Sequence record: NC_052661.1
Length of the DNA stretch: 64,000 nt
From: Escherichia phage ukendt
Strand: one strand, 5' to 3'
The notes below the pieces were generated by a model. It was not told the DNA's origin and ran no database searches. It saw only the letters and a list, made by a program, of their open reading frames with translations. Below are positions 6,693-38,864 of the stretch, piece by piece. Each line of letters opens with the position of its first letter. Position 1 is the first letter of the stretch. The translations under genes were made by a program, and so were the position numbers.

Positions 6693-6751
6693 GCGGGGAA
6701 CTATTCCCCGCTTCATGTGATATATCTTACTCTTTTTAAGAACTATGTCAA
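6693..6751 (-). promoter_or_regulatory. cassette-type promoter + 5' hairpin driving terC
   Basis: On the minus strand: TTGACA, 16 nt, TAAGAT, then ACATGAAGCGGGGAATAGTTCCCCGC hairpin, RBS, ATG at 6675. Confidence 0.55.
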
Positions 6752-27345: not shown

Positions 27346-27496
27346 TCCTATACAAACCCTTGTCTTTTTCAGTTTGCATCACTAGGATTCGATCTGAGTG
27401 GGTTCCTGAAGGTCTGCCAATAAGATTAAAGGTTATCTCAAATTCCCACTACCTATTATCTCAAAAATCCCTCAAATTATTTAAACTTTTTAAGAA

Positions 27497-27536
27497 TTTA
27501 CAAAAGTGAAAGTTGAAAACCAAAATTTAAAGTTTA
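27497..27536. repeat. direct repeat, copy 1 (TTTAAAGTTTA-containing unit)
   Basis: TTTACAAAAGTGAAAGTTGAAAACCAAAATTTAAAGTTTAG, imperfectly repeated at 27636. Confidence 0.5.
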
Positions 27537-27635
27537 GGAAAATTATCTTAAAATGTTAGATACAAAACAAAACTCAAAAGTCAAGGAAAATTTTAAAAAT
27601 TTTGCGCGCCCACAGTATTTAAAGTTTTTTTGCTT

Positions 27636-27675
27636 TTACAAAAATGAAAGTACAAAAGCAAAATTTAAAGTTTAC
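27636..27675. repeat. direct repeat, copy 2
   Basis: TTTACAAAAATGAAAGTACAAAAGCAAAATTTAAAGTTTAC. Confidence 0.5.
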
Positions 27676-27722
27676 AAAAATTTTTATGCAGGTGAAAATG
27701 AGAAGAGTTCTCATATGGAAAT

Positions 27723-27745
27723 GCAAATGATAATGATTCGCATTT
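27723..27745. promoter_or_regulatory. Fur-box-like operator (site A)
   Basis: GCAAATGATAATGATTCGCATTT, about 14 of 19 to the Fur consensus, 60 bp upstream of site B. Confidence 0.4.
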
Positions 27746-27761
27746 AAGTTTATAAATGAGA

Positions 27762-27803
27762 TTGATTCTTATTTAATAAGGTAAATGATAATCATTCTCA
27801 TTT
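27762..27803 (+). promoter_or_regulatory. promoter with Fur-box-like operator across the -10 (site B)
   Basis: TTGATT, 18 nt, TGATAAT; palindrome AAATGATAATCATTCTCATTT matches the Fur consensus GATAATGATAATCATTATC at 16 of 19 positions. Confidence 0.5.
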
Positions 27804-28021
27804 AGAGAATGACGCGCAGGGGCGGTGTTTGTCTCGCGCTCCCGTGTCCCCTCGCCATGTAATAAGAATAACAGATCCAGCCAGGAAAGCAAGAGATTAT
27901 TTTATCTTTACATTTCTTTACAAATATATAGCGCCCAGCCTACCGGCGATCAACCTTCCAACCAGTGCCTCTGGTATGTTAGCCCCGCCTTTACGCCGTG
28001 GGGTGGCGCTTCCTCTTCTGT

Positions 28022-28437: not shown

Positions 28438-28496
28438 TTGACGTTCGCCAGGTGGCGGCATAATATTTACCACGTAGGGCGGCAATGGTGCCGCTC
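28438..28496 (+). promoter_or_regulatory. cassette promoter + 5' hairpin module
   Basis: TTGACG, 17 nt, TAATAT, then ACGTAGGGCGGCAATGGTGCCGCTCA hairpin. Confidence 0.55.
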
Positions 28497-28515
28497 ATTA
28501 TTTGGAGTTAAAATC

Positions 28516-28713
28516 ATGGCAACATTGCACATTGTGGCGAAAGCTGGACAAATAAACGTGGTAGTAAACGGTTTTACTGAGTTCAGTCATCCCCAGGATG
28601 ATCATGAAACGGTTTTATCTTTCATTGATTCACTGTTAGAAATGGGAGTAATTACAGAAGACCAGCACGCTACAAAATGCAAACGCGTTAATCAGATTGC
28701 AGGAATAGAATAA
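28516..28713 (+). CDS. cassette small protein
   Basis: 65 aa; own promoter-hairpin module; GGAG RBS. Confidence 0.5.
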   Translation: MATLHIVAKAGQINVVVNGFTEFSHPQDDHETVLSFIDSLLEMGVITEDQHATKCKRVNQIAGIE

Positions 28714-28720
28714 AAAGTAT

Positions 28721-28783
28721 TGACAACAACCAACAACCTGATAAGATGTATCACATAGGGCGGCGGAATGGTCCAGCCGCTCA
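28721..28783 (+). promoter_or_regulatory. cassette promoter + 5' hairpin module
   Basis: TTGACA, 16 nt, TAAGAT, then ACATAGGGCGGCGGAATGGTCCAGCCGC hairpin. Confidence 0.55.
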
Positions 28784-28805
28784 CAACAGAAGAGAGATTA
28801 TAATC

Positions 28806-29078
28806 ATGGCATCATATAGCGCAACAATGATCGTAGCTGGCACCACTGGTAAACCTATGAGCGGTGGCGGATCTTTCGCAAATATCAACATTGACGGGCG
28901 TTTATCCCTGGACGCAGCGATCACCGTGGCGCGGGAAACATTTAAGAAAGAATGTAAATTCAATAAACAAGATTATCTCGGTTTTGCTATTGAAAAAACC
29001 GCGCGTTTTGTTGATTATAAAAGCCCAAAAATGGTTGATACTACACTAAAAGCGCAAGATGTAGCGTTTTTGCTTTAA
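28806..29078 (+). CDS. cassette small protein
   Basis: 90 aa; promoter-hairpin module; start refined to 28806. Confidence 0.5.
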   Translation: MASYSATMIVAGTTGKPMSGGGSFANINIDGRLSLDAAITVARETFKKECKFNKQDYLGFAIEKTARFVDYKSPKMVDTTLKAQDVAFLL

Positions 29079-29082
29079 GGTT

Positions 29083-29136
29083 TGACATTAACGAATAATT
29101 TGTTAATATGTTACATAAAGCGGGAATAGTTCCCGC
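29083..29136 (+). promoter_or_regulatory. cassette promoter + 5' hairpin module
   Basis: TTGACA, 16 nt, TAATAT, then GCGGGAATAGTTCCCGC hairpin. Confidence 0.55.
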
Positions 29137-29154
29137 TATTTGTAAGGTGGTAGA

Positions 29155-29412
29155 ATGTTTTACATCAAATTAAAAGGTCACGTGATCGCGTTCAAGGATA
29201 ACGCTTTTTACAGATTAGCAAAGTATGCGTTAATACATCCCCATTATGTTTATATAAGGGGGCGTGATGAAATAAATATTTTTGATCAAACAACATGCGA
29301 GAACATCGAGATCCGCAAGGTTGGCGTACGTGACTATCGTACATCTTTCTACCCTTGCAAGGATTCAGCAAGTCTTTTTAAAGTATGCCGATTGTTGAAA
29401 AAAGGTGGTTAA
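29155..29412 (+). CDS. cassette small protein
   Basis: 85 aa; promoter-hairpin module. Confidence 0.5.
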   Translation: MFYIKLKGHVIAFKDNAFYRLAKYALIHPHYVYIRGRDEINIFDQTTCENIEIRKVGVRDYRTSFYPCKDSASLFKVCRLLKKGG

Positions 29413-29413
29413 T

Positions 29414-29971
29414 ATGGGCCGCGAATATGTGATCCAGTCTTGGGTAAAACATGAAGCAGATGATCCGCGCATCATTCCTGATTATCTTGTCGATGAATCC
29501 ACGGGCTATAGCGGGGAGCAAATAGGTAACAGATTAGCACGTAGTAACGGCAACGTAAAAGCGCGTTATGTGCGCCCTGGTTGGCTGGCAAATGGTAACG
29601 CTGATTTATCCAGTGCGGAAGATGCGAGCGACGGCGCGAAAGATAATCCCTTGTACAAAGTTGATCCGGCTTTTCGTGTCCTGGATGAATACCCCAACAA
29701 GATAGCGGCGCTTGATGAAGCACTAGAAAGTAAGCGCATCACCTGGACCGCTTACAACATGGCAAAAAACGTACTTGATGGTAAACTGATTCAAGCGGAG
29801 AGAAAATTAGCCAAAATTGCAGCCATAGCCCAGGAGGAAGACGAGGAGACAACGGAAGAGGAAGAGTACGAAGAGATCCCGCCGTTGTTGTGTGTTGATG
29901 CTTTTCCTGATTATCAGCCGACAGAGGAAGAAAAAAGGATCGCCCTAGAAAACTTTGAAAATAGTCTTTGA
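29414..29971 (+). CDS. cassette protein with highly acidic C-terminus
   Basis: 186 aa; EEDEETTEEEEYEE tail; co-transcribed with preceding gene. Confidence 0.5.
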   Translation: MGREYVIQSWVKHEADDPRIIPDYLVDESTGYSGEQIGNRLARSNGNVKARYVRPGWLANGNADLSSAEDASDGAKDNPLYKVDPAFRVLDEYPNKIAALDEALESKRITWTAYNMAKNVLDGKLIQAERKLAKIAAIAQEEDEETTEEEEYEEIPPLLCVDAFPDYQPTEEEKRIALENFENSL

Positions 29972-30026
29972 CATATCGCCGCCACTAGCATAATATTTAC
30001 CACGTAGGGCGGCAATGGTGCCGCTC
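29968..30026 (+). promoter_or_regulatory. cassette promoter + 5' hairpin module
   Basis: TTGACA, 17 nt, TAATAT, then GCGGCAATGGTGCCGC hairpin. Confidence 0.55.
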
Positions 30027-30053
30027 ATAGTGAAATTATACAAGAGGCTTACA

Positions 30054-30149
30054 ATGATTAATAAAGAAAATAGCTTGACGGTTGGAACGATTAACGGTAT
30101 CATTCTAGCCGTTCCATTTTGGATTGTAGTAGCGGTTATTATTTTCTAA
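30054..30149 (+). CDS. cassette hydrophobic peptide
   Basis: 31 aa; own promoter-hairpin module. Confidence 0.35.
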   Translation: MINKENSLTVGTINGIILAVPFWIVVAVIIF

Positions 30150-30157
30150 AAATATTC

Positions 30158-30218
30158 TTGACAACGTTTTTTAATCTGATAAGATGTATCACATAGGGCG
30201 GCGGAATACTTCCCCGCC
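30158..30218 (+). promoter_or_regulatory. cassette promoter + 5' hairpin module
   Basis: TTGACA, 16 nt, TAAGAT, then GGGCGGCGGAATACTTCCCCGCC hairpin. Confidence 0.55.
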
Positions 30219-30239
30219 AAAACAAAAAAGGGTAACACA

Positions 30240-30602
30240 ATGAGCAAGCAAATCAATACTATCATGTTTAATCTGGTATCTTTCCGCGATGATATGAAAA
30301 ATTTACCACGTGAAACGGTTGATATTCATGTTTCAGCTTATCGCGCCCTTATTGACATGTTACCGCTAAAACGTGATCAACATGCCGCTAATATGATGCT
30401 TAATGCTATGCTTAAAAAGATGATTCAAACGGATCTTACTCTGGCATATGAGTATCAAGGGCGCTTATATGCAACTTACAACAAGGCGGTACCTGGTCTG
30501 GGAAGTACCGAAGAGTTGCACGGCTTAAACCTGGATCAAAACACTTGGGATAGTATGCGCCGCGTTATGGTATGGGCCGAAAGCGGTAAAATTTACGAAT
30601 AA
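30240..30602 (+). CDS. cassette small protein
   Basis: 120 aa; promoter-hairpin module. Confidence 0.5.
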   Translation: MSKQINTIMFNLVSFRDDMKNLPRETVDIHVSAYRALIDMLPLKRDQHAANMMLNAMLKKMIQTDLTLAYEYQGRLYATYNKAVPGLGSTEELHGLNLDQNTWDSMRRVMVWAESGKIYE

Positions 30603-30608
30603 AAACGG

Positions 30609-30668
30609 TTGACACTGTTTAAACTTCTGGTATAGTTTACCACATAGGGCGGGAAGTGGTTTCCCGCC
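30609..30668 (+). promoter_or_regulatory. cassette promoter + 5' hairpin module
   Basis: TTGACA, about 17 nt, TATAGT, then GGCGGGAAGTGGTTTCCCGCC hairpin. Confidence 0.55.
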
Positions 30669-30690
30669 AACAATTAAAAAGGTTATCATC

Positions 30691-31056
30691 ATGGCTATTA
30701 ATATTAATGTTTCCTCTTATGCTACCCTGGCTGACACGGCTAAAATTGAATTATCCAGCATTGAGGCGGTGCATATTAGCGCCCGTCGCTGGTTTCAACA
30801 GTCCTACGGTAACACATATTTTTCTTTAATGGTTGACGTTGAGATCGGCGGTAAACTGATCGAGGTGGTTAACGTTCCGTTTCAATATGGTTATGGTGAT
30901 CATTTTGATACCGTCGCCCTGGAAGAATTTAGCAAGGTCGTTAATATGGAAGGTAAAGAGTTTTCACGCGGCGCGTATCTTTCCCGTTTTTGCCGTGACA
31001 ATGGGATCACTGTATACAGTCATGCAAGCGATGTTAAACGTAAAAAAGATCTATAA
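30691..31056 (+). CDS. cassette small protein
   Basis: 121 aa; promoter-hairpin module. Confidence 0.5.
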   Translation: MAININVSSYATLADTAKIELSSIEAVHISARRWFQQSYGNTYFSLMVDVEIGGKLIEVVNVPFQYGYGDHFDTVALEEFSKVVNMEGKEFSRGAYLSRFCRDNGITVYSHASDVKRKKDL

Positions 31057-31063
31057 AAAGCAT

Positions 31064-31121
31064 TGACAGCACGAATAAAAAGAGTAAACTGTATTACATA
31101 GAGAGCGGGAACACTTCCCGC
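31064..31121 (+). promoter_or_regulatory. cassette promoter + 5' hairpin module
   Basis: TTGACA, 16 nt, TAAACT, then GCGGGAACACTTCCCGC hairpin. Confidence 0.55.
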
Positions 31122-31145
31122 CTCACTGAAAAAGAGAGAAAAATC

Positions 31146-31385
31146 ATGGCTAAATCTAAAATGTACAACGGTCACAAAAACAAAACTCATTGGAATGTAA
31201 GCCTTTGGATTAATAACGATGAATCATTGTATCGGTTTGCATTGGGATTGATCAATGAGTGCGGTAATAAAGATCAGGCGGCTGATTTAATGTGCTACCG
31301 TTTGAAACAGGATGGAATCACTACAACGCCAGACGGCTTTAAGTATAGTAAAACTGCAATCCGCGCCGCTATGGTTGGAATGTAA
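31146..31385 (+). CDS. cassette small protein
   Basis: 79 aa; promoter-hairpin module. Confidence 0.5.
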   Translation: MAKSKMYNGHKNKTHWNVSLWINNDESLYRFALGLINECGNKDQAADLMCYRLKQDGITTTPDGFKYSKTAIRAAMVGM

Positions 31386-31394
31386 TAAAAACAG

Positions 31395-31454
31395 TTGACA
31401 ACGTTTAAAATTAGTGTAAGATGTATCACATAGGGCGGGAAGTGGTTTCCCGCC
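31395..31454 (+). promoter_or_regulatory. cassette promoter + 5' hairpin module
   Basis: TTGACA, 16 nt, TAAGAT, then GGCGGGAAGTGGTTTCCCGCC hairpin. Confidence 0.55.
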
Positions 31455-31476
31455 AACAACAGAGAGATTAAAGATT

Positions 31477-31704
31477 ATGGCTATCAATATTGTTCGTGTA
31501 TCCGGCACCGTTGGCAGTTCCCAGGTTGTAGCAGTTATCACAGAGAAGAAAGGGGATGATCTTCACTCTTCCTTGAATAGCTGGGCGGTCGCTAACTTCG
31601 GGCAATGGTCGAGCGTTGAGTACATCGAATCCTACCAGGTGCCGACGATTAGCCTAACCGATCTCAACGTTGATCGCTTGTTGTGCCTGGATGAATTAAT
31701 CTGA
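31477..31704 (+). CDS. cassette small protein
   Basis: 75 aa; promoter-hairpin module. Confidence 0.5.
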   Translation: MAINIVRVSGTVGSSQVVAVITEKKGDDLHSSLNSWAVANFGQWSSVEYIESYQVPTISLTDLNVDRLLCLDELI

Positions 31705-31714
31705 AAAAAGATTG

Positions 31715-31772
31715 TTGACACCGGAAAGAAAAAGAGTAGAATATATTACATAGGGCGGCAATGGTGCCGCTC
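31715..31772 (+). promoter_or_regulatory. cassette promoter + 5' hairpin module
   Basis: TTGACA, 16 nt, TAGAAT, then GCGGCAATGGTGCCGC hairpin. Confidence 0.55.
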
Positions 31773-31795
31773 ACAACAGAAGAGAGATTATCACG

Positions 31796-32011
31796 ATGGC
31801 TAATATCCGCACTTTACTGAAAAATGCAAGTCAAGTTTTATTTTCAGATGACGAGTATTTCAATAAAGACATTACAGGCGTGAAAAATTTAAAAGACGTG
31901 AAGGATGTTATCGGTATTCGTGGATCTTTACGTAAAGGTGATTACTATGGTAACAAGGTGCAATATAAACTGTCAAAGGATTACAATTTTACTTTGACAA
32001 TTATTTCATAA
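31796..32011 (+). CDS. cassette small protein
   Basis: 71 aa; promoter-hairpin module. Confidence 0.5.
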   Translation: MANIRTLLKNASQVLFSDDEYFNKDITGVKNLKDVKDVIGIRGSLRKGDYYGNKVQYKLSKDYNFTLTIIS

Positions 32012-32017
32012 AACCGC

Positions 32018-32077
32018 TTGCAATACTGCAAAAATAAAGTAAACTATATTCATCAAGGCGGGGAATGGTCCGCCGCC
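32018..32077 (+). promoter_or_regulatory. cassette promoter + 5' hairpin module
   Basis: TTGCAA, 16 nt, TAAACT, then GGCGGGGAATGGTCCGCCGCC hairpin. Confidence 0.5.
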
Positions 32078-32101
32078 TAACAAAGAGAAGAGGAAAACAT
32101 C

Positions 32102-32275
32102 ATGATCACTTTCGCTACCCGTGAAGCCGCTCGCAACGTTGCACGTAAAGTTAACGCCGCCAACCTGGGCGCTACACTTAAAGCCCCGGTGAAAGATGAA
32201 TCAGGCAAATGGATCTTCCCTGGTCTGCGTCATGCTGACAAGTTAGGTACTTTAAGCCTTAAAAATAATCGTTGA
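32102..32275 (+). CDS. cassette small protein
   Basis: 57 aa ORF not in track; promoter-hairpin module. Confidence 0.4.
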   Translation: MITFATREAARNVARKVNAANLGATLKAPVKDESGKWIFPGLRHADKLGTLSLKNNR

Positions 32276-32309
32276 CTTTTCGTTATAGCGCCTTACAATG
32301 GGCGCTATA
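32272..32309 (+). promoter_or_regulatory. variant cassette promoter with palindrome across the -10
   Basis: TTGACT, 16 nt, TACAAT, embedded in TATAGCGCC...GGCGCTATA inverted repeat. Confidence 0.45.
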
Positions 32310-32342
32310 GAGAAGAGAAACCACTATTAACAAGGAAACATC

Positions 32343-32564
32343 ATGATTACTTTTGCTATTGTCGCCGTTGTTGCTGGTCAGGTTTACGTAAATGATACAT
32401 TCACCACAGAAGACAAGGCAGCAGGAGACATCACCGCCGCTTATAATGAGTGCAAGGCAGTAGAAAGGATGTTAGCGCCTTGTATGCTAATGAGTGAACG
32501 CCAGGACGGAATAACAGTATTTACTAACATTGAAACAGGGTACCAAATGGTAGTAACAAAATAA
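32343..32564 (+). CDS. cassette small protein
   Basis: 73 aa; variant promoter with palindrome. Confidence 0.5.
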   Translation: MITFAIVAVVAGQVYVNDTFTTEDKAAGDITAAYNECKAVERMLAPCMLMSERQDGITVFTNIETGYQMVVTK

Positions 32565-32567
32565 AGC

Positions 32568-32624
32568 TTGACACCGATTTAATTTTTAGTAAACTGTTAC
32601 ACGTAGGGCGGGAATAGTTCCCGC
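32568..32624 (+). promoter_or_regulatory. cassette promoter + 5' hairpin module
   Basis: TTGACA, 16 nt, TAAACT, then GCGGGAATAGTTCCCGC hairpin. Confidence 0.55.
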
Positions 32625-32643
32625 TCAAAAAGAGAGAAAGACC

Positions 32644-32997
32644 ATGAAAGCACAAAATGCAATTAAAGAGTACATCCTTGCCGCTATCGATTTTAATGAT
32701 TACGGTATTACAACCGAAAAAGAGAAGATCGCGGAATTGATGCGCCGTTTTAATTCCGAGTACTGGTACCCTGATAACCAATCACGTTTTAATTATAGTA
32801 TTGTTAAAGCACTTGCATCATGGTTACAAGGCTTGCCATCAGATATCAATATCGCTTTCGAATATTGGGAAATTGATCGCCTGTTAACATCCTGGGGATA
32901 CATTAAAGAGAATAGCAGCGATGATAAAATCCAACGAGAAAGGGAAAATTATTGGCTTTATATTGCAGGCGTGATCCTTGCTTGCTCTTATGAATGA
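32644..32997 (+). CDS. cassette small protein
   Basis: 117 aa; promoter-hairpin module. Confidence 0.5.
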   Translation: MKAQNAIKEYILAAIDFNDYGITTEKEKIAELMRRFNSEYWYPDNQSRFNYSIVKALASWLQGLPSDINIAFEYWEIDRLLTSWGYIKENSSDDKIQRERENYWLYIAGVILACSYE

Positions 32998-33003
32998 TAA
33001 ACC

Positions 33004-33058
33004 TTGACAATTTTACAAAACAGTTTAAATTAACAATATAGCGGCAATGGTGCCGCTC
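33004..33058 (+). promoter_or_regulatory. cassette promoter + 5' hairpin module
   Basis: TTGACA, A/T-rich -10 region, then GCGGCAATGGTGCCGC hairpin. Confidence 0.5.
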
Positions 33059-33076
33059 ATATGAAGAGGAAACAAA

Positions 33077-33223
33077 ATGAATACATCTAATCGCGCAGAA
33101 AAAATTCAATCTTCCAAGATCCGCAAGGCCTGGAACGAGGAAGTGATCCGCAAAGGCGACAAGCGCAATAAAACAAAGCGCGGGAAGAGTGACAAATATA
33201 ATTGGATGGATTTAGAGGATTAA
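33077..33223 (+). CDS. cassette small basic protein
   Basis: 48 aa Lys/Arg-rich; promoter-hairpin module; followed by terminator. Confidence 0.4.
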   Translation: MNTSNRAEKIQSSKIRKAWNEEVIRKGDKRNKTKRGKSDKYNWMDLED

Positions 33224-33230
33224 CATAACA

Positions 33231-33257
33231 AGGGCGCATCAAGCGCCCTTTCTTTTT
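33231..33257 (+). terminator. rho-independent terminator inside the cassette array
   Basis: AGGGCGC-ATCAA-GCGCCCT followed by TTCTTTTT. Confidence 0.6.
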
Positions 33258-33278
33258 ACATGTAGAGGATAAACAAAA

Positions 33279-33464
33279 ATGATTTTAAACGAGCTTAAAA
33301 CAGCCTACAACGCAACATTAAAAATAGCCGTGCGTTACCGTGATGCGTACGGTTTTATCGCGCAGGGCGTGATCCTGGGCTTTTCTGACGATGGTTTGAT
33401 CTATGTTGATGCACATCACAACAAGGTTAAACCGGAAAACGTTATCAATATAAAATATCTTTAA
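33279..33464 (+). CDS. cassette small protein
   Basis: 61 aa; RBS GAGGA. Confidence 0.45.
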   Translation: MILNELKTAYNATLKIAVRYRDAYGFIAQGVILGFSDDGLIYVDAHHNKVKPENVINIKYL

Positions 33465-33470
33465 AAGTGG

Positions 33471-33527
33471 TTGACACCATAACCGGACCTGTTAAACTGT
33501 ATTACATCAGGCGGGGAATAGTTCCCC
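33471..33527 (+). promoter_or_regulatory. cassette promoter + 5' hairpin module
   Basis: TTGACA, 16 nt, TAAACT, then GGGGAATAGTTCCCC hairpin. Confidence 0.55.
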
Positions 33528-33550
33528 CACCATACAAAAAGGTAAATATT

Positions 33551-33757
33551 ATGATCACCGCAAAACAAGAAAAAATCATTATCGACGTTGCAGCCGTTGC
33601 CGCTATTGCTATTATTGGATCTTATTATGATACCCGTTTCCCGTCGGCTATGCATGAGATCGCCGCCGTTGCATCAGTCGGCGTGCTGTTTTACGTTGGT
33701 AAACGCTATTTATCACCAATGATTAACAAGCTGACACCGTGGAAAAATAAAGGTTGA
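33551..33757 (+). CDS. cassette small membrane protein
   Basis: 68 aa; promoter-hairpin module; start refined to 33551. Confidence 0.5.
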   Translation: MITAKQEKIIIDVAAVAAIAIIGSYYDTRFPSAMHEIAAVASVGVLFYVGKRYLSPMINKLTPWKNKG

Positions 33758-33810
33758 TCCTGTTTTATATTGTGTTATAGTTATCGTGTAGGGCGGCAAT
33801 GGTGCCGCGC
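33754..33810 (+). promoter_or_regulatory. cassette promoter + 5' hairpin module
   Basis: TTGATC, 16 nt, TATAGT, then GCGGCAATGGTGCCGC hairpin. Confidence 0.5.
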
Positions 33811-33829
33811 CCCCTTTGAGGATGAAATC

Positions 33830-34114
33830 ATGAGTAAAGCTAACACCGTGCTAATGTTTTCCCTGATTAATGATCCCGCTTACTTGTCCAACATGACGCA
33901 GGAGGGTAACACATTAACGGCAACATTCACCAATAAGCTTGACCGAGTGATCATCATCTCACTGAAAACAGTTAGTAAAGGCTTTTACTCGTTAGCTTAT
34001 CATTGGATCACCGATACCGATGAGACAAGCCAGGACTATAGCGCCCCTTTCCCTGAATCAATGGCACGGGAGATCATCGCCGCCGTTGTAAATGATGGTT
34101 TGTTTACTGCATAA
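33830..34114 (+). CDS. cassette small protein
   Basis: 94 aa; shares 25-nt initiation region with gene at 24955. Confidence 0.5.
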   Translation: MSKANTVLMFSLINDPAYLSNMTQEGNTLTATFTNKLDRVIIISLKTVSKGFYSLAYHWITDTDETSQDYSAPFPESMAREIIAAVVNDGLFTA

Positions 34115-34131
34115 ATAATTTAGAAAAAGGC

Positions 34132-34188
34132 TTGCAATCATTTTGAGATAGTGTATATTTAATTCATAGGGCGGCGGGAATAGTTCCC
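34132..34188 (+). promoter_or_regulatory. cassette promoter + 5' hairpin module
   Basis: TTGCAA, 16 nt, TATATT, then GGGAATAGTTCCC hairpin. Confidence 0.5.
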
Positions 34189-34211
34189 AAAGCAAACGAG
34201 AGGATTACACG

Positions 34212-34330
34212 ATGAGCAAGTACACAGTAGAATACACGGTAGAAAATCCGGCAGTATCCGAAGGTAAAAAGATGACATTTGCCATCAGTATAATCGCTTT
34301 CGTTGTCACTATCTTATCAATCATCTTATA
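34212..34330 (+). CDS. cassette hydrophobic peptide
   Basis: 39 aa with C-terminal TM segment; promoter-hairpin module. Confidence 0.35.
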
Positions 34331-34341
34331 AGGTGCACACC

Positions 34342-34503
34342 ATGAAAACAACAGATATTATCAAAGAGATCGCCCTTGCCGCTGGCGTTGAGATCGAGGA
34401 AGTGATCGCGCTCAATCTTACAGAAAACGATCTGCGCAACTATGAAGCGGAAAGCGTGAAAGCAAGCGGTGCGATCCTGGCATATAATCCGGCTAACAAG
34501 TAA
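34342..34503 (+). CDS. cassette small protein
   Basis: 53 aa ORF. Confidence 0.35.
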   Translation: MKTTDIIKEIALAAGVEIEEVIALNLTENDLRNYEAESVKASGAILAYNPANK

Positions 34504-34512
34504 GGGGATAAC

Positions 34513-34623
34513 ATGAATCCGAAAGATATGCAAGCATGGAAAGGGTACGACGATCTGAGCGCCTTGCGTAATAAGTCCAGCCGTAACCTTAGACGATTGC
34601 AAGCAAAGAAAAAGAAAAAATAG
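34513..34623 (+). CDS. cassette small basic protein
   Basis: 36 aa ending KKKKK. Confidence 0.3.
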   Translation: MNPKDMQAWKGYDDLSALRNKSSRNLRRLQAKKKKK

Positions 34624-34624
34624 T

Positions 34625-34682
34625 TTGACAAGTCCGCTTAATCTGATAATATGTATCTTGTAGGGCGGCAATGGTGCCGCTC
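34625..34682 (+). promoter_or_regulatory. cassette promoter + 5' hairpin module
   Basis: TTGACA, 16 nt, TAATAT, then GCGGCAATGGTGCCGC hairpin. Confidence 0.55.
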
Positions 34683-34701
34683 ACAAGAAGAGAGAAAAAT
34701 C

Positions 34702-34986
34702 ATGAAAATCACAAAAAGCCTAACTAATTATGCAGCACGTCGCGGATTATGTTTAACCGTTGAAAACTTAGGGAAAGAAGACTTTTTGTGTTTTTGGGAG
34801 CTTGAAAACGATTGCGAGTGGATGTTTTCCTATTCTATCTGCGAAGATCAAAACGGTTGTTTGTTAACCTGGCGCGGTAATATTTATTTACCGGAAGAAA
34901 TTAAAGAGGAATTACCAGGTACGATCATGACAGAGAGACAGCTTAAGGAAATGATTAATTTTGTAGGGCAAAACATTAAAAAATAA
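34702..34986 (+). CDS. cassette small protein
   Basis: 94 aa; promoter-hairpin module. Confidence 0.5.
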   Translation: MKITKSLTNYAARRGLCLTVENLGKEDFLCFWELENDCEWMFSYSICEDQNGCLLTWRGNIYLPEEIKEELPGTIMTERQLKEMINFVGQNIKK

Positions 34987-34987
34987 T

Positions 34988-35050
34988 TTGACAGCACGCA
35001 AACAACGTAGTAAAGTTTACCACATAGGGCGGCGGAATGGTCCACCGCTC
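34988..35050 (+). promoter_or_regulatory. cassette promoter + 5' hairpin module
   Basis: TTGACA, 17 nt, TAAAGT, then GGGCGGCGGAATGGTCCACCGC hairpin. Confidence 0.55.
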
Positions 35051-35071
35051 ACAACAGAAGAGAAACAAATC

Positions 35072-35242
35072 ATGATCCCGACTATGTTTTATGTATCGCG
35101 CAAAGGTCACAATATTTTTTGGTCTGAAGATTTAAATGAAGCCATGACGTTTGCCCGTGATCGTGTTGCTATCGGTGGCGTTAACATCACCGTAACCGAT
35201 GAAAATGGCATTGAATACTATAACGGCGACGATGAAGAGTAA
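35072..35242 (+). CDS. cassette small protein
   Basis: 56 aa; promoter-hairpin module. Confidence 0.45.
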   Translation: MIPTMFYVSRKGHNIFWSEDLNEAMTFARDRVAIGGVNITVTDENGIEYYNGDDEE

Positions 35243-35249
35243 TTAATGA

Positions 35250-35267
35250 GGCGGGGAGTACCCCGCC
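35250..35267 (+). promoter_or_regulatory. cassette-type GC hairpin without recognisable -35/-10
   Basis: GGCGGGGAGTACCCCGCC, 20 nt upstream of the ATG at 35287. Confidence 0.4.
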
Positions 35268-35286
35268 GTCAATAAAGAGGTAAATC

Positions 35287-35556
35287 ATGAAAATATCATT
35301 GGACGTTGCAATCAAGGCCATCGAATCCGGTTACATCCTGGTAAAAGATGATAAGGCTAAAATAGTGCATCATGTTAACAAGGAAACAGGCGAGAGCATG
35401 ATCACATATAAAGCCGCCTACTTTCTCCAATCAGTAGCAGATCCGCGCGTACAACGCCAGGTTACAGCGGCTATTGCTAAAAAATTATGTGCTTTACAGG
35501 GTGCAAGTTTTAACGAGATTGCCCCGTGTTTTGAGTGGTCAAGCTTGAAAAAATAA
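35287..35556 (+). CDS. cassette small protein
   Basis: 89 aa; preceded by GC hairpin only. Confidence 0.5.
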   Translation: MKISLDVAIKAIESGYILVKDDKAKIVHHVNKETGESMITYKAAYFLQSVADPRVQRQVTAAIAKKLCALQGASFNEIAPCFEWSSLKK

Positions 35557-35557
35557 T

Positions 35558-35619
35558 TTGACAACAATTATAAATCGGGTAGAATGTATTTCGTAGGGCG
35601 GGGCAATAAGGCAACGCCC
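35558..35619 (+). promoter_or_regulatory. cassette promoter + 5' hairpin module
   Basis: TTGACA, 16 nt, TAGAAT, then GGGCG...CGCCC hairpin. Confidence 0.5.
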
Positions 35620-35634
35620 ATTAATGAGGGTAGA

Positions 35635-35742
35635 ATGATGTTAGAGAAAATTTTCACGGTTGTAATAGTGGGCCTGGCGTTATCGGTTGGAGTGGTTGCA
35701 ACTATGGCTAACATGATCCTATCTTCCCACGGTATCGGCTAA
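35635..35742 (+). CDS. cassette hydrophobic peptide
   Basis: 35 aa single TM; promoter-hairpin module. Confidence 0.35.
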   Translation: MMLEKIFTVVIVGLALSVGVVATMANMILSSHGIG

Positions 35743-35752
35743 GGTGAAACAA

Positions 35753-35968
35753 ATGATCACGAATAAGACAGGTAAAACGGAATTTTTACGCGGCTTGCAA
35801 GTTGGTAAACCTGAGATCTGGCATTGTACTAAATCCGCGCATAATGAAATGAAAGATTTTACCGCTACTTTACAACGTGTTAAAATATCTATCACACAGA
35901 AAAAAGCCTTGTTAGTAGTAGAAAACGAGATCCCGCAAACTATTATTATTGTCGAGCGTACAGCATGA
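35753..35968 (+). CDS. cassette small protein
   Basis: Start refined to ATG 35753. Confidence 0.45.
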   Translation: MITNKTGKTEFLRGLQVGKPEIWHCTKSAHNEMKDFTATLQRVKISITQKKALLVVENEIPQTIIIVERTA

Positions 35969-36351
35969 AAACAGAAATCATTATTGAAATCATCAACGGT
36001 TATAAAGAAGCCTTTATTTTTGCTGAATCAGCAAGGGATCATGAAGGTAATTTTATTGAAAACTTAGACGATTATGATTTTTCTCCTAGCGCGGACGAAC
36101 GGATCGCCCAGGATGTAACAGCCTTTATTAATGCTAATCTTGCCGCTATCTCTGAGGCAATGAGCGACGGCGCAACAGCCAACCAGATCGGGAATGATTT
36201 ACATTTTACCCGTAACGGTCACGGCGTAGGCTTTTGGGATCGCCCTGAAATATACACCACTAACACGGCGAACCGCCTAACCAATGCAGCTAAGTTTATG
36301 CCGAACGTGTCGGCTTACATTGGTGAAGATAATTTGATTTATATTGAATAA
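35965..36351 (+). CDS. cassette small protein
   Basis: 128 aa; translationally coupled. Confidence 0.5.
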   Translation: MKTEIIIEIINGYKEAFIFAESARDHEGNFIENLDDYDFSPSADERIAQDVTAFINANLAAISEAMSDGATANQIGNDLHFTRNGHGVGFWDRPEIYTTNTANRLTNAAKFMPNVSAYIGEDNLIYIE

Positions 36352-36357
36352 AAAGTA

Positions 36358-36415
36358 TTGACACAGATCGCCAGTGTGCTAATATTTACCACGTAGGGCG
36401 GCAATGGTGCCGCCG
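36358..36415 (+). promoter_or_regulatory. cassette promoter + 5' hairpin module
   Basis: TTGACA, 16 nt, TAATAT, then GGCGGCAATGGTGCCGCC hairpin. Confidence 0.55.
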
Positions 36416-36432
36416 ATAATGAGGAAAGTAAA

Positions 36433-36732
36433 ATGGAAACTATCGCTATTGTTACCGTAGAAAAACTGGTTGTTGGTGATGTATTCGCGTTAATGGTGCC
36501 TAACAGCAGCAAGCTGGGCGCTTATGAAGTAATGGATCATAAAAATGAATCATTTGGCGACGGTTGCACAATGGCGGTAAAATCTTTAAAGGATGGAATT
36601 ATCCGCCAGGCTAACTGGCACAAAGGGAATCAAGTCGGTTTAATATCAGCTAATTTCTTGCCAGAAGAGCAAACGTTAGACCAACTATCAGGCGGTAAGA
36701 CGTTAGCCGAACTACTGGAAACAGCGATCTAA
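36433..36732 (+). CDS. cassette small protein
   Basis: 99 aa; promoter-hairpin module. Confidence 0.5.
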   Translation: METIAIVTVEKLVVGDVFALMVPNSSKLGAYEVMDHKNESFGDGCTMAVKSLKDGIIRQANWHKGNQVGLISANFLPEEQTLDQLSGGKTLAELLETAI

Positions 36733-36739
36733 TCGACAA

Positions 36740-36755
36740 GGGGCGGCAACGCCCC
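36740..36755 (+). promoter_or_regulatory. cassette-type GC hairpin without recognisable promoter
   Basis: GGGGCGGCAACGCCCC between stop at 36732 and ATG at 36786. Confidence 0.35.
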
Positions 36756-36785
36756 CATTAAACGCAATAGGAAGAGGATAGACAC

Positions 36786-37076
36786 ATGAAAAAGATGATC
36801 GCAGTAGTTGCCCTGGTTGTTGGTATTAACGCGCCTGTAATGGCGAAAGAGTTGCCAGAATCCATCACGTTAACCGATATCAACGCAATAAACCGGATCG
36901 GCGTTAATTATCGCCTATGCCTTGCCGCTAAAACTTTCCAGGACGGCACAACAGAGTACTACGGATTCGAGGGTACCCGCTGCGGTGAGCTTGCACGCGA
37001 CCTTAAGGAAGATCCAGACCTTGAGGCCATACCGATGACCGTAAACGGTAAAGCTTACGTAAACCGCCAACAATGA
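36786..37076 (+). CDS. cassette secreted protein
   Basis: 96 aa; signal peptide MKKMIAVVALVVGINAPVMA. Confidence 0.5.
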   Translation: MKKMIAVVALVVGINAPVMAKELPESITLTDINAINRIGVNYRLCLAAKTFQDGTTEYYGFEGTRCGELARDLKEDPDLEAIPMTVNGKAYVNRQQ

Positions 37077-37207
37077 GAAAGGTAATCATCACAATGGGGA
37101 TCGTAGTAGCAACGCTGGCGCTTATCCCCTTCATGGTTGAACATGTGCTGATCAGTGTTGTCCTTGTAGTCAGTGACCTATTGGAAACGGTTGGCACCTG
37201 GTTTTAA
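37073..37207 (+). CDS. cassette hydrophobic peptide
   Basis: 44 aa ORF overlapping upstream stop (ATGA). Confidence 0.35.
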   Translation: MRKVIITMGIVVATLALIPFMVEHVLISVVLVVSDLLETVGTWF

Positions 37208-37381
37208 GATAATAAATAGGGCTTGCAATAGTCCTATTTTTTGTTATACTTATTGAACGGGCGGCACCTGGGAGCAGGGGAAGATAATCACCGGAAGACC
37301 CCGCTATATATTGATAACTAACGCCTATCAAACAACAAAACATCAAAGGAACAAACTATCAAATCTTTACAATTCTACCTA

Positions 37382-37410
37382 TTGACACCGGATCACGCTT
37401 ACATTATTAT
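37382..37410 (+). promoter_or_regulatory. sigma70-like promoter with degenerate hairpin
   Basis: TTGACA, 17 nt, TATTAT, then ACGTAGGGC without the complementary arm. Confidence 0.45.
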
Positions 37411-37456
37411 TTATCACGTAGGGCAAATCATTTTAAACGGTAAACGAGGAATCACC

Positions 37457-37840
37457 ATGAGCAATATCATCAACCTGGCAGCGACTGTAAACGGTAAAGA
37501 CTTTAACGGCGCTGTAGACCGTGATCCTATGTGGTGCTTGTCAGTGTTTAAAGGTGACTTGGTTGAAGTTAGAACAACCGAAGGGTATAGCGATGATTAT
37601 AAATGCGAGATCCATTTACATAACTGGTACACGGGTAAAACTTATGCGCTGAATCATGCGTTTATCGGCAAGGTTGAATATAGAGAAATGATCGACGATG
37701 AAACGGGGCAGGATTTTAGCGAAAACGTTTATATTCGTTCCGAGACATTAGCCGAACGTTTGATCGAGAAAATGAAAGCAAAAAATAAAATTAATTTATC
37801 TCATTGGATTGATATAACAAACGATCCAGCTTATCAGTAA
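37457..37840 (+). CDS. cassette protein
   Basis: 127 aa; promoter without hairpin; followed by terminator. Confidence 0.5.
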   Translation: MSNIINLAATVNGKDFNGAVDRDPMWCLSVFKGDLVEVRTTEGYSDDYKCEIHLHNWYTGKTYALNHAFIGKVEYREMIDDETGQDFSENVYIRSETLAERLIEKMKAKNKINLSHWIDITNDPAYQ

Positions 37841-37855
37841 ATAACATTTCATACC

Positions 37856-37882
37856 AGGGCGCACAAAGCGCCCTTTCTTTTT
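37856..37882 (+). terminator. rho-independent terminator at the right end of the cassette array
   Basis: AGGGCGC-ACAAA-GCGCCCT followed by TTCTTTTT; near-identical to the terminator at 33231. Confidence 0.6.
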
Positions 37883-38520: not shown

Positions 38521-38843
38521 GTAATGACGCTTACACTTATTGCGCTGGCTTATTATTAGCATTATATGTAATTACCAAGATCATAACATTAGCGCAATAA
38601 CAATAATCATTGTGGTAATTACAAGATGAAATCATTAGCAAGATGAATAATTGCACGTAGCAACATGAGCGAATAGCGACAGGTTGCATAGTGTGCACAT
38701 AGTGTATAAACATACAAGAAAATAAAGGCTAATCTTTTGGGGGCGAATACTATCGCGTAGCGATATGTTGAGCACCTTCTCTTAAACGTAAATAAAATCA
38801 GAAAATTCTTGATTTATTTTAGTTTTTATGTTAATAAACGTTT

Positions 38844-38864
38844 AAATAATAATCATTCTCATAT
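38844..38864. promoter_or_regulatory. Fur-box-like operator (site C)
   Basis: AAATAATAATCATTCTCATAT shares the core AATCATTCTCAT with sites B and D. Confidence 0.4.

Follow-up and report, generated by a model that had tools for sequence, protein, structure and literature searches.

Recurrent hairpins near the predicted transcript start in the early-gene cassettes of a Phapecoctavirus genome

What is the short GC-rich hairpin that recurs behind the early promoters of Escherichia phage ukendt, and what might it do for the transcripts that carry it? We analysed a stretch of 64,000 nucleotides of sequence record NC_052661.1 (the window), which is a segment of a Phapecoctavirus (phAPEC8-like) genome. 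A preliminary description of this DNA placed the first copy of the hairpin behind a promoter at 28.4 kb, and its coordinates are correct: positions 28467-28473 form the discriminator, 28474 is the predicted +1, and 28477-28496 folds. The stems that it quoted are likewise real. By pattern scan and folding, a GC-rich hairpin lies 10-12 nt past the -10 box at 19 of the 21 consensus-like sigma-70 promoters between 28.4 and 36.4 kb, with one further promoter-linked hairpin on the minus strand at 6.7 kb, outside the array. These promoter-linked hairpins are a real, conserved and fairly ordinary leader element. Their most plausible role, which we favour with moderate confidence from a predicted start site and an inferred function, is that of a 5'-proximal stem-loop that stabilises or insulates the transcript and sits inside a shuffled early-promoter cassette. 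The features are as follows (folding energies in kcal/mol).

28438..37247, plus strand: array of about 23 early-gene cassettes, each ordered as A-rich upstream element, TTGACA-N16/17-TAnnnT, 7-nt discriminator ending in YAC, predicted +1 purine, hairpin, A/C-rich unpaired leader, Shine-Dalgarno and small ORF; the only true terminators in the array are at 33230-33250 and 37214-37239.
28467-28473, plus strand: discriminator ttaccac of module 1.
28477..28496, plus strand: hairpin 1 (the copy in the preliminary description), GGGCGGCA AUGG UGCCGCUC, -14.4, z -3.74; -35 at 28438-28443, -10 at 28461-28466, predicted +1 at 28474 (G), AUG at 28516.
28758..28782, plus strand: hairpin 2, GGGCGGCGGA AUGG UCC(A)GCCGCUC with the A bulged, -16.6, z -3.86; promoter 28720-28747, +1 28755, AUG 28806.
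29119..29137, plus strand: hairpin 3, AGCGGGAA UAG UUCCCGCU, -12.4, z -2.75; promoter 29082-29109, +1 29117, AUG 29155.
30007..30026, plus strand: hairpin 4, identical in sequence to hairpin 1; promoter 29968-29996, +1 30004.
30197..30218, plus strand: hairpin 5, GGCGG(C)GGAA UAC UUCCCCGCC, -14.0, z -2.15; promoter 30158-30185, +1 30193, AUG 30240.
30648..30668, plus strand: hairpin 6, GGCGGGAA GUGGU UUCCCGCC, -15.2, z -3.34; promoter 30609-30636, +1 30644, AUG 30691.
31101..31124, plus strand: hairpin 7, GAG(A)GCGGGAA CAC UUCCCGCCUC, -15.3, z -4.48; promoter 31063-31090, +1 31098, AUG 31146.
31434..31454, plus strand: hairpin 8, identical in sequence to hairpin 6; promoter 31395-31422, +1 31430, AUG 31477.
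31753..31772, plus strand: hairpin 9, identical in sequence to hairpin 1; promoter 31715-31742, +1 31750, AUG 31796.
32057..32074, plus strand: hairpin 10, GGCGGG GAAUGG UCCGCC; weaker promoter with TTGCAA 32018-32023 and TAAACT 32040-32045, AUG 32102.
32606..32626, plus strand: hairpin 11, GGGCGGGAA UAG UUCCCGCUC, -14.9, z -4.34; promoter 32568-32595, +1 32603, AUG 32644.
33040..33057, plus strand: hairpin 12, AGCGGCA AUGG UGCCGCU; promoter 33004-33031, AUG 33077 (T7 gp1.1-like ORF).
33510..33531, plus strand: hairpin 13, GG(C)GGGGAA UAG UUCCCC(CA)CC, the weakest full copy, -11.1, z -1.84; promoter 33471-33498, +1 33506.
33791..33811, plus strand: hairpin 14, core GCGGCA AUGG UGCCGC; TTGATC 33754-33759, TATAGT 33776-33781, AUG 33830.
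34176..34188, plus strand: hairpin 15, short 5-bp copy, GGGAA UAG UUCCC inside UAGGGCGGCGGGAAUAGUUCCCAAAG; TTGCAA 34132-34137, TATATT 34154-34159, AUG 34212.
34663..34682, plus strand: hairpin 16, identical in sequence to hairpin 1; promoter 34625-34652, +1 34660, AUG 34702.
35027..35050, plus strand: hairpin 17, GGGCGG(C)GGA AUGG UCC(A)CCGCUC; promoter 34988-35016, +1 35024, AUG 35072.
35596..35619, plus strand: hairpin 18, irregular, GGGCG..GC AAUAAG GC..CGCCC, -14.9, z -3.90; promoter 35558-35585, +1 35593.
36397..36414, plus strand: hairpin 19, GGCGGCA AUGG UGCCGCC; promoter 36358-36385, +1 36393, AUG 36433.
6693..6711, minus strand: isolated copy outside the array, GCGGGGAA UAG UUCCCCGC, -14.6, z -4.05; TTGACA 6751-6746, TAAGAT, +1 6716, AUG 6675.
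35250..35267, plus strand: promoterless intergenic hairpin, GGCGGGG AGUA CCCCGCC, between a stop codon and the next Shine-Dalgarno and AUG (35287).
36740..36755, plus strand: promoterless intergenic hairpin, GGGGCG GCAA CGCCCC, with a GNRA loop; AUG 36786.
32283..32310, plus strand: different cassette class, palindrome UUAUAGCGCCU / UACAAU / GGGCGCUAUAG over the -10 box of the 32272 promoter, whose transcript has no 5' hairpin.

The hairpins are stable and specific to this promoter family. Their free energies range from -11 to -17 kcal/mol, with z-scores of about -2 to -4.5 (-1.84 in the weakest full copy). Across an automated set of 19 cluster promoters, 17 have a minimum free energy (MFE) of -11 kcal/mol or lower and a first paired base at +1 to +6, and their medians (MFE -14.4 kcal/mol, z -3.7) differ from those of 24 other promoter-like sites in the window (-3.75 kcal/mol and -0.4; Mann-Whitney p = 2.6e-5). 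Only two of these 24 sites have a comparable hairpin: one is the copy at 6.7 kb, and the other is a cluster copy read in antisense. A covariance model run with filters off over all 64 kb placed every good match in the cluster or at 6.7 kb. The cluster promoters match the consensus at 10-11 of 12 positions and are A-rich upstream; sigma-70-like promoters elsewhere in the phage, such as those at 48090, 49007 and 53039, are hairpin-free, and hairpin-less promoters fold at about 0 kcal/mol. The ORFs in the array are ORFans except for a T7 gp1.1-like protein (PF08200) and a DUF7249 protein, and no tRNA or tmRNA genes were found. The string GGCGGGAANNNTTCCCGCC matched 115 stretches of viral contigs, mostly on contigs much shorter than the ~150 kb genomes of these phages, and these matches were set aside as those of a generic palindrome.

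The position of the hairpin relative to the predicted start is fixed. With +1 taken as the purine 8 nt past the -10 box, and thus predicted from that box, pairing begins at +3 to +5 in 70 of the 93 hairpins linked to promoters in ten genomes; in a further 15 of the 93, extra outer pairs caused pairing to be scored from +1. In the 20 window copies, the hairpin occupies +4 to +25. An alternative start 2 nt upstream, at the A in CAC, would leave five unpaired nucleotides. Distances from the hairpin to the -10 box and to the AUG, compared in order to tell a constraint tied to the transcript end from one tied to the ribosome site, are both narrow, and folding of whole segments added spurious outer pairs. 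When ten hairpin-bearing leaders were folded from +1 to AUG, the hairpin was the sole predicted structure and the Shine-Dalgarno region was unpaired. The earlier claim that a hairpin begins near the predicted start in every module thus stands for nearly all copies, which start 3-5 nt after the predicted +1, and needs correction for the rest: the 5' hairpin is missing behind the promoters at 32272 and 37382, the copy at 34176 has only 5 bp, and those at 35250 and 36740 are promoterless. Since these last two occur without a promoter, a 5'-terminal position is not required of every intergenic hairpin.

A hairpin this near the 5' end is the layout that shields E. coli mRNAs from 5'-end-dependent decay by RppH and then RNase E. 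In work on ompA, Emory, Bouvet and Belasco (1992) reportedly found that E. coli mRNA is stabilised by stem-loops at its 5' terminus that have at most about 4 unpaired nucleotides, and the T7 phi10 leader starts with such a hairpin. We postulate that, within each repeated early-gene cassette (~70-90 bp), the hairpin is the element transcribed first. Host RNA polymerase would most likely initiate at the purine 8 nt past the -10 box, so that the stem of 7-10 bp would be preceded by about 3 and no more than 5 unpaired nucleotides. The stem would shield the transcript from the same RppH and RNase E pathway and would keep the 5' end from pairing with whichever coding sequence lies downstream, so that the ribosome-binding site would stay open in any cassette. 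Like the ompA hairpin and the T7 phi10 leader, the cassette leaders combine a stable hairpin a few nucleotides from the predicted 5' end with an unstructured leader and a Shine-Dalgarno, and keep structure while sequence is free to vary. Unlike them, they form a ~20-fold paralogous family with short leaders of ~45 nt and a lower stem that is sequence-conserved within the genome, and their stabilising function is predicted. The fixed position near the predicted +1, the conservation of structure and the lack of any other predicted leader structure are consistent with a 5'-terminal stabilising stem-loop as modelled here. A literature search on Phapecoctavirus, Vequintavirus and Stephanstirmvirinae returned nothing relevant on transcript mapping or on a description of these hairpins.

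By sequence criteria, the copies lack the features of intrinsic terminators and of nut sites. Only the hairpin at 28477 passes the terminator scan (tail ATTATTTGGA), and the others have no U-tract; real terminators by the same scan lie at 33230, 37214 and 37856. Antitermination elements of the lambda nut or rrn type were considered and rejected, as no leader contains a boxA (GCUCUUUAACAA-like) at up to 3 mismatches and the loops are UAG, AUGG, GUGGU and similar rather than the GNRA-like pentaloop of a boxB hairpin; a boxA/nut reading of the GCUCACAACAG flank likewise gave no boxA-like match. Rfam 15 returned no match at gathering thresholds over the 64 kb, and permissive searches gave only chance-level matches (E above 3) within 28-38 kb. 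The stable intercistronic hairpins of T4 mRNA (the C(UUCG)G class) and the RNase III sites of T7 are phage intergenic hairpins thought to protect mRNA segments. The two promoterless hairpins, at 35250 and 36740 (the latter with a GCAA loop), would resemble this class; the family as a whole differs from it in having no UUCG loops and stems too short for RNase III, and in that most copies are tied to promoters.

Sequences of this family already stand in GenBank under other labels. In the phAPEC8 record, the same sequences are annotated as 'Putative promoter determined with PHIRE', and the features at 556-575, 1787-1806 and 3202-3221 read gtagggcggcaatggtgccg. In vB_Eco_Alma, the 'terminator' features at 2688-2712 and 5203-5224 coincide with matches of our model. 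Both labels conflict with the anatomy, as no U-tract accompanies the motif, which follows a consensus host promoter at a distance of 10 nt. The preliminary description missed these existing annotations, as well as the similar promoterless hairpins and the membership of the family in recombining cassettes.

Comparison with relatives shows that structure is kept while sequence turns over. Justusliebigvirus, Vequintavirus (rV5), Seunavirus, Certrevirus and a Klebsiella relative share this layout but have other stems and loops. Across six genera, 58 distinct hairpin sequences stand at the same position, and the distance to the -10 box stays at 9-12 nt even in genera with diverged flanks. Where two modules precede the same gene (61 pairs), the hairpin was lost from one member in a single pair, and one further pair belonged to the -10-palindrome class, with no 5' hairpin in either member. 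Orthologous modules often exchanged the hairpin for another type (identity 0.48-0.76) with the free energy held at -12.7 to -17 kcal/mol. As far as sequence evolution can indicate, the family thus behaves like the ompA type, whose effect depends on structure and not on sequence. When 30 copies were aligned with MAFFT and folded with RNAalifold, no consensus structure emerged, since differing loop lengths misalign the 3' arms; a covariance model was built from a single geometry class as the remedy. Alignment to this model left 90.8% of cells paired, compared with 79% after shuffling and 45-71% when the partners were slid; covariation scored 0.294 versus 0.110, with changes on both sides in 7 of 9 pairs, in an alignment fitted to the model and including reverse-strand reads of palindromes. 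The covariation proposed earlier as a check was found, but much of it as whole-hairpin replacement, since the lower stem is conserved by paralogy within this genome. The proposal that structure rather than sequence is conserved is borne out for presence and stability, which persist while sequence is exchanged among paralogues and upstream of orthologous genes. It does not extend to the lower stem GGGCGG/CCGCUC and the preceding UAG, which are sequence-conserved because the modules are paralogues; it is the upper stem and the loop that really vary.

This turnover bears on whether the hairpin has any function of its own or is simply carried along in a duplicated promoter block. The window copies have UAGGGCGG and CCGCUCA in common by descent, and the hairpins of orthologues are no more alike (identity 0.85) than their promoter spacers (0.83), as a passenger would be. 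Against this, hairpins are swapped for different hairpins instead of decaying, six genera keep the structure although their stem sequences are unrelated, and z-scores reach -3 to -4.5. We regard a passive passenger as very unlikely.

A double-stranded DNA operator would place the same symmetry at the service of a dimeric repressor, which would bind a palindrome centred near +14 and shut off the early promoters. The near-perfect inverted repeats over +4 to +25 occupy a classic repressor position. Against such a site, the outer half-sites GGCGG/CCGCC are spaced at 8 to more than 13 bp, their sequences vary among copies and genera, and bulges are tolerated. The mismatches also carry an RNA-sense bias: there are 24 G.U pairs, every one with its G on the 5' arm, versus 9 C.A, a one-sidedness of G.T 'pairs' that a DNA site would not predict, and the sense strand is stabler than the antisense in 47 of 74 cases (p = 0.03). 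Of the explanations considered, we give the operator the slimmest chance.

The preliminary description also suggested that the hairpin is the site of a phage or host RNA-binding protein or nuclease that governs all cassette transcripts jointly. Some ~20 transcripts have a common element with a conserved 5' UAG(G) and AA on the 5' side of the loop, and the family is confined to early ORFan cassettes. The AAT(G/A)G loop-side motif holds for ~17 of 22 window copies, the rest reading AAGTGG, AACAC or AATAC. Beyond close relatives, however, the AAUGG/AAUAG loop is not kept: rV5, KP13-26 and KE23 have AAUGU, AAAAC, CAACAA, AAAAG, AAUUG and AAAGG, making a regulator that specifically recognises the loop less plausible. 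At least eight stem/loop types within one genome (loops UAG, AUGG, GUGGU, CAC and UAC, and a 14-nt apical region) weigh against it as well. A Pfam scan of 20 cassette-region proteins found no RNA-binding domain and matched only PF08200 and DUF7249. We consider joint control by such a protein unlikely. The same low likelihood attaches to a cis-regulon in which a shape-recognising phage or host factor (a binder, a nuclease or a 5'-end-modifying enzyme) would read the 5' UAG and G-rich stem on ~20 early transcripts, either protecting them jointly during host mRNA decay or shutting them off at the early-to-middle switch, through an element conserved in Stephanstirmvirinae and Vequintavirinae. A link to an Srd-like RNase E-stimulating protein was dropped, as rV5 gp11 has no homologue in the window. 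The rV5 paper and a RefSeq note describe gp11 as Srd-like; its RefSeq product name is 'HNH endonuclease'.

The cassettes invite comparison with the PeSL (promoter-early stem-loop) cassettes of the T4-like phages RB49, phi1, PST and nt-1 (PMC2839356, PMC4122927), whose stem-loop behaves as a terminator and is located upstream of the promoter, inside it or immediately ahead of the start site (PMC2839356). Both have a strong, repeated sigma-70-like early promoter with an AT-rich upstream region, a G-then-C-rich stem-loop, a Shine-Dalgarno and an ORFan, and in both the cassettes cluster in a variable region where the homology breakpoints of relatives fall at cassettes. Unlike the PeSL, the window hairpin is predicted to be transcribed from +4 and has no U-tract, and the lineage is that of Stephanstirmvirinae and Vequintavirinae rather than T4-like phages. 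A stem-loop upstream of or overlapping the promoter occurs here only as the 32283 palindrome and in the spacer of CR9. These lie around the -10 box and inside the promoter spacer, respectively, and so cannot be in that promoter's own transcript; the -10-palindrome class is also present in KP13-26, CR9 and KE23.

Mosaic junctions cluster at the modules. Of the homology-block ends against four relatives, 35 of 66 fall within -60 to +40 of a module, in windows that make up 23% of the region, and several lie at +1 to +20; these counts are not independent across related genomes. Three different genes stand behind the same promoter and GUAGGGC in the window, tuntematon and phAPEC8. Cassette recombination thus appears, on correlative evidence, to shuffle genes as in the PeSL. 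Because the promoter-plus-hairpin block is repeated ~20 times, it would supply homology for cassette exchange between related phages, and the leader hairpin most likely also marks cassette swap sites; a causal part in recombination is one that we infer.

The stem-loop may, as in the PeSL, act mainly on read-through transcripts from upstream (as an attenuator, a pause, or a processing or 3'-protection site), its position after the promoter being incidental. Read-through is expected, since most cassettes have no terminators between them; the promoterless hairpins, the match of the -10-box and spacer stem-loops to PeSL subclasses (PMC2839356), the breakpoints at modules and the terminator labels of the Alma record also agree with such a role. 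Nevertheless, 19 of the 20 promoter-linked hairpins have no U-tract and only the first copy passes the terminator scan, a real terminator placed directly behind a promoter would switch off the gene which that promoter serves, and the spacing from the -10 box is kept across genera with diverged flanks. We consider this role rather unlikely and retain the 5'-proximal stabilising or insulating stem-loop as the preferred interpretation.

The finding opens no long-standing question. If the hairpins do act at the 5' end, rV5-like and phAPEC8-like phages, many of them therapy candidates, would express ~20 host-takeover ORFans through a standard promoter-plus-leader part, which would be reusable as a compact, strong expression cassette. 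Mis-annotations ('PHIRE promoter', 'terminator') in hundreds of GenBank records would be corrected, and the notion behind the PeSL, of regulatory cassettes that also serve as recombination sites, would reach beyond the T4-like phages.

The first hairpin of the early-gene array (28477-28496) follows a promoter of the form TTGACG-N17-TAATAT and the sequence ttaccac; from the predicted +1 onwards the sequence reads G-UA-GGGCGGCA-AUGG-UGCCGCUC. A scan for TTGAYN-N16-18-TAnnnT returned a + strand run of promoters from 28438 to 37382 and one - strand site at 6751; behind nearly all of them come (A/G)TAGGGCGG and then a GC-rich inverted repeat. Repeat finding recovers the same hairpin families. The promoter-linked hairpins comprise 19 copies in the array and one outlier at 6693-6711 on the - strand. 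The preliminary description placed a hairpin in every module, which applies to these 19 array promoters but not to two others (32272 and 37382), which lack a 5' hairpin. Folded from +1 to +36, the array promoters have medians of -14.4 kcal/mol (MFE) and -3.7 (z); those of 24 further promoter-like sites of the window are -3.75 kcal/mol and -0.4 (p = 2.6e-5). Ten hairpin-bearing leaders folded separately span -11.1 to -16.6 kcal/mol (z -1.8 to -4.5), against about 0 kcal/mol for two leaders that lack a hairpin. One geometry class served to build a covariance model, which was scanned across the full window with filters off; all matches with E below 1 fall in the array or at 6.7 kb, and matches elsewhere are marginal, such as 56725 at E about 1. 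Given the pattern scan, the folding statistics and the covariance-model scan, the hairpin family is real, non-random and specific to the cassette array. A search of Rfam found no family for the hairpins.

Each cassette opens with an A-rich stretch, often containing the stop codon of the previous ORF, followed by a promoter consisting of TTGACA, a 16- or 17-nt spacer and TAnnnT, the latter preceded by TGn in eight cases. The 7-nt discriminator ends in (C/T)AC, and the next purine is the assigned +1. UA and the hairpin follow, the first paired base lying at +3 to +5. Between hairpin and AUG extends an A/C-rich leader of 17-27 nt containing the Shine-Dalgarno sequence; in the ten folded hairpin-bearing leaders, the ribosome-binding region is predicted to be open, with the hairpin as the sole predicted structure. 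The cassette ORFs comprise 31-188 codons, and their Pfam matches are limited to a T7 gene 1.1-like protein and a DUF7249 protein.

Features of the array, its surroundings and Cronobacter phage CR9 (window coordinates unless stated)
27473-27544 and 27611-27682: two direct repeats of 72 nt (82% identity), sharing the non-coding AT-rich region of the Fur-box-like repeats
27696-27804: three tandem 29-nt repeats, each with a palindrome resembling the E. coli Fur box, e.g. TAAATGATAATCATTCTCATTTA
30075-30103: promoter-like site, TTGACG-N17-TATCAT, inside the tiny ORF 30054-30149, without hairpin
32018 and 34132: promoters with -35 box TTGCAA, followed by two of the 19 array hairpins, beyond those found with the TTGAYN scan
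32272-32310: second promoter class, 11-bp inverted repeat TTATAGCGCCT / GGGCGCTATAG (palindrome 32283-32310) around the -10 box TACAAT
33077-33223: T7 gp1.1-like ORF, 48 aa, Pfam PF08200 (bacteriophage T7 gene 1.1 protein), E = 4.9e-13
33230-33250 and 37214-37239: the only two sequence-typical terminators within the array
35250-35267 and 36740-36755: two promoterless intergenic hairpins
37856-37874: third sequence-typical terminator, just downstream of the array
38843-38871 and 39022-39050: further Fur-box-like repeat copies, 11 kb downstream of the 27696-27804 set
CR9 record 7767-7794, 8280-8307 and 9567: GC hairpin in the -35/-10 spacer, TTGACG ccgggaaccgtcccggct TATAAT

The T7 early protein family PF08200 is thus found in a myovirus early cassette. 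The promoter-like site at 30075-30103 is kept in tuntematon, PaulScherrer and phiWec181. As the array holds only two terminators, read-through over several cassettes is expected. An attenuator or processing element acting on such read-through RNA would accommodate the promoterless copies and the stem-loops at other positions, but U-tracts are missing and the distance to the -10 box is fixed, which makes this reading unlikely. Two identities were rejected on sequence grounds. For an intrinsic terminator, a T-rich tail follows the first copy only, the others continuing with CACAACAG, CAAAAAG or CAACAA, and a terminator separating a gene from its own promoter would be self-defeating. For a nut-like site, the boxA-resembling flank GCUCACAACAG has no boxA match at up to 3 mismatches, and the loops are not GNRA-like pentaloops.

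Over the 11 kb surrounding the first hairpin, the window shares 94-97% identity with Escherichia phages KKP 3954, ECML-183-2, tuntematon and AV125, all Phapecoctavirus (phAPEC8-like myoviruses, subfamily Stephanstirmvirinae). GC skew marks a switch of transcription to the + strand near 22 kb. Database matches include records under other host names, for example MG065650.1 ('Campylobacter phage B15') and OP562383.1 ('Acinetobacter phage vB_AbaM_ABPW7'), that match 8-9 kb of this E. coli phage at 95-96% identity; probably these host names are mistaken, or the records stem from contaminating coliphages. The Fur-box-like repeats at 27696-27804 lie in ORF-free, AT-rich surroundings directly upstream of the array, and one copy is 3 mismatches away from the 19-bp Fur consensus (chance expectation 0.04 matches). 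The equivalent stretch of the tuntematon record is annotated 'repeat_region' only. Shorter AAAACnAAAAnTnAAAGTnnAGGAAAATT repeats accompany the 72-nt repeats, and this non-coding region could be an origin or regulatory region.

Being paralogues, the modules of the window share a nearly constant lower stem, GGGCGG/CCGCUC, and the UAG in front of it. Upper stem and loop take at least eight forms, including CA-AUGG-UG, GAA-UAG-UUC, GAA-GUGGU-UUC and GAA-CAC-UUC; another, CGGA-AUGG-UCC, carries a bulge or 1x1 mismatch. The previously proposed AAU(G/A)G loop motif is present in about 17 of 22 copies, and the remainder differ. Such diversity of loops and stems inside one genome makes it distinctly unlikely that the hairpin is a site for an RNA-binding regulator or nuclease, although a shape-specific binder is conceivable. 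The same layout is found in Phapecoctavirus (tuntematon, phAPEC8, phiWec181), Justusliebigvirus (PaulScherrer/Bas60), Vequintavirus (rV5, Alma), Klebsiella phage KP13-26, Cronobacter phage CR9 (Certrevirus) and Salmonella phage KE23 (Seunavirus). In these relatives the hairpin starts 9-12 nt after the -10 box, and stems and loops differ (GGCGGGAAUGUUUCCCGCC, GGCGGGAAAACUUCCCGCC, GGGGGGCAACAAGCCCC, GGGGCAAAAGUGCCC, GGGGCGACAAGCGCCCC, GGCGGCAACGUUGCC); all genomes together hold 58 distinct hairpins. A covariation check on a model-derived alignment of 150 hits, which is fitted to the model, includes reverse-strand reads of near-palindromes and has many rows that are kin by descent, gave 90.8% paired cells versus 79.0% in shuffles and 45-71% with slid partners, and a covariation score of 0.294 versus 0.110, with both-side changes in 7 of 9 pairs.

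As a cleaner test, modules were paired across five genomes when they preceded the same gene, taken as at least 80% identity over the first 90 nt of the ORF, which yielded 61 orthologue pairs. The hairpin is missing from one member in a single pair (1/61), and one further pair belongs to the -10-palindrome class, neither member having a 5' hairpin. In many pairs the hairpin is swapped for another type (identity 0.48-0.76) with dG kept at -12.7 to -17; GGCGGGAAGUGGUUUCCCGCC in one phage, for instance, corresponds to GGGGCGACAAGCGCCCC in another, with ORF starts identical across the 90 nt compared. By region, identity is highest in the -35 box (1.00), followed by the ORF (0.93), the -10 box (0.90), the hairpin (0.85) and the spacer (0.83). 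The swaps with retained dG and the near-absence of loss argue that selection maintains the presence of a hairpin at this site, not one specific sequence. The earlier view that structure rather than sequence is conserved thus fits the varied upper stems and loops and the swapped orthologues, but not the lower stem within the window. Since hairpins are replaced by hairpins, a functionless passenger is very improbable. A dsDNA operator is likewise unlikely, and we give it the lowest probability of the alternatives: the conserved outer half-sites are spaced 8 to more than 13 bp apart and bulges are tolerated; wobbles are one-sided, with 24 G.U pairs (G always in the 5' arm) against 9 C.A mismatches; and the sense strand is more stable in 47 of 74 cases (p = 0.03), a modest bias.

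The array shares its cassette logic with the promoter-early stem-loop (PeSL) cassettes described in the T4-like phages RB49 and phi1, in which an AT-rich region, a strong sigma-70 promoter and a G-then-C-rich stem-loop lie upstream of ORFans (Arbiol et al., PMC2839356). PeSLs are concentrated in hyperplastic regions, where genes are shuffled via inter-cassette recombination; the stem-loop of a PeSL is found upstream of, inside or just before the start site, and strong termination was seen in a tested example (PMC2839356). Two minority classes match this geometry. One is the -10-box palindrome (32283-32310), whose transcript is predicted to begin AUAGAGAAGAG without a hairpin, and which also occurs in tuntematon, phiWec181, KP13-26, CR9 and KE23. 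The other, the CR9 spacer hairpin, has the commonest PeSL geometry, here in a Vequintavirinae phage. Comparing the window with tuntematon, phAPEC8, PaulScherrer and phiWec181 by blastn, 35 of 66 homology-block ends fall within -60 to +40 of a module, windows that make up 23% of the region, the counts not being independent as the genomes are related. Several ends lie at +1 to +20, i.e. inside the hairpin. At promoter 37382 (37382-37457), GUAGGGC is retained and the rest of the hairpin is lost, and three different sequences and genes follow in the window, tuntematon and phAPEC8; this looks like a recombination junction inside the hairpin. The breakpoint pattern of the array is the PeSL pattern.

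In the phAPEC8 GenBank entry, exactly these 20-mers are labelled 'putative promoter determined with PHIRE', one of them directly following a 'host dependent promoter determined with MEME'. In the Alma entry the corresponding hairpins, some 20 nt ahead of start codons, carry the label terminator. Leader hairpins are not discussed in the rV5 paper, which does list sigma-70 promoters and terminators, and literature searches on this phage group found no transcript-mapping paper.

We consider it somewhat more probable than its negation that the hairpin is a 5'-proximal element of each primary early transcript, protecting the mRNA and insulating its 5' end, while the repeated block aids cassette exchange. 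From the predicted start site, each primary early transcript would begin just before the hairpin. About 3 unpaired nucleotides followed by a 7-10 bp stem is the arrangement by which E. coli mRNAs escape 5'-end-dependent decay, with the ompA hairpin and the T7 phi10 leader as established cases, and a similar effect on half-life or translation may apply here. The hairpin would also stop the 5' end from pairing with whichever ORF the cassette carries, as befits a part moved between genes, and the repeated promoter-hairpin block may supply homology for cassette exchange and so contribute causally to recombination. The element is absent from Rfam and mislabelled in GenBank, and it belongs to known kinds, the 5' leader stem-loop and the promoter/stem-loop cassette. 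Overall, rV5-like and phAPEC8-like phages have in this hairpin a structural element that is real and conserved.
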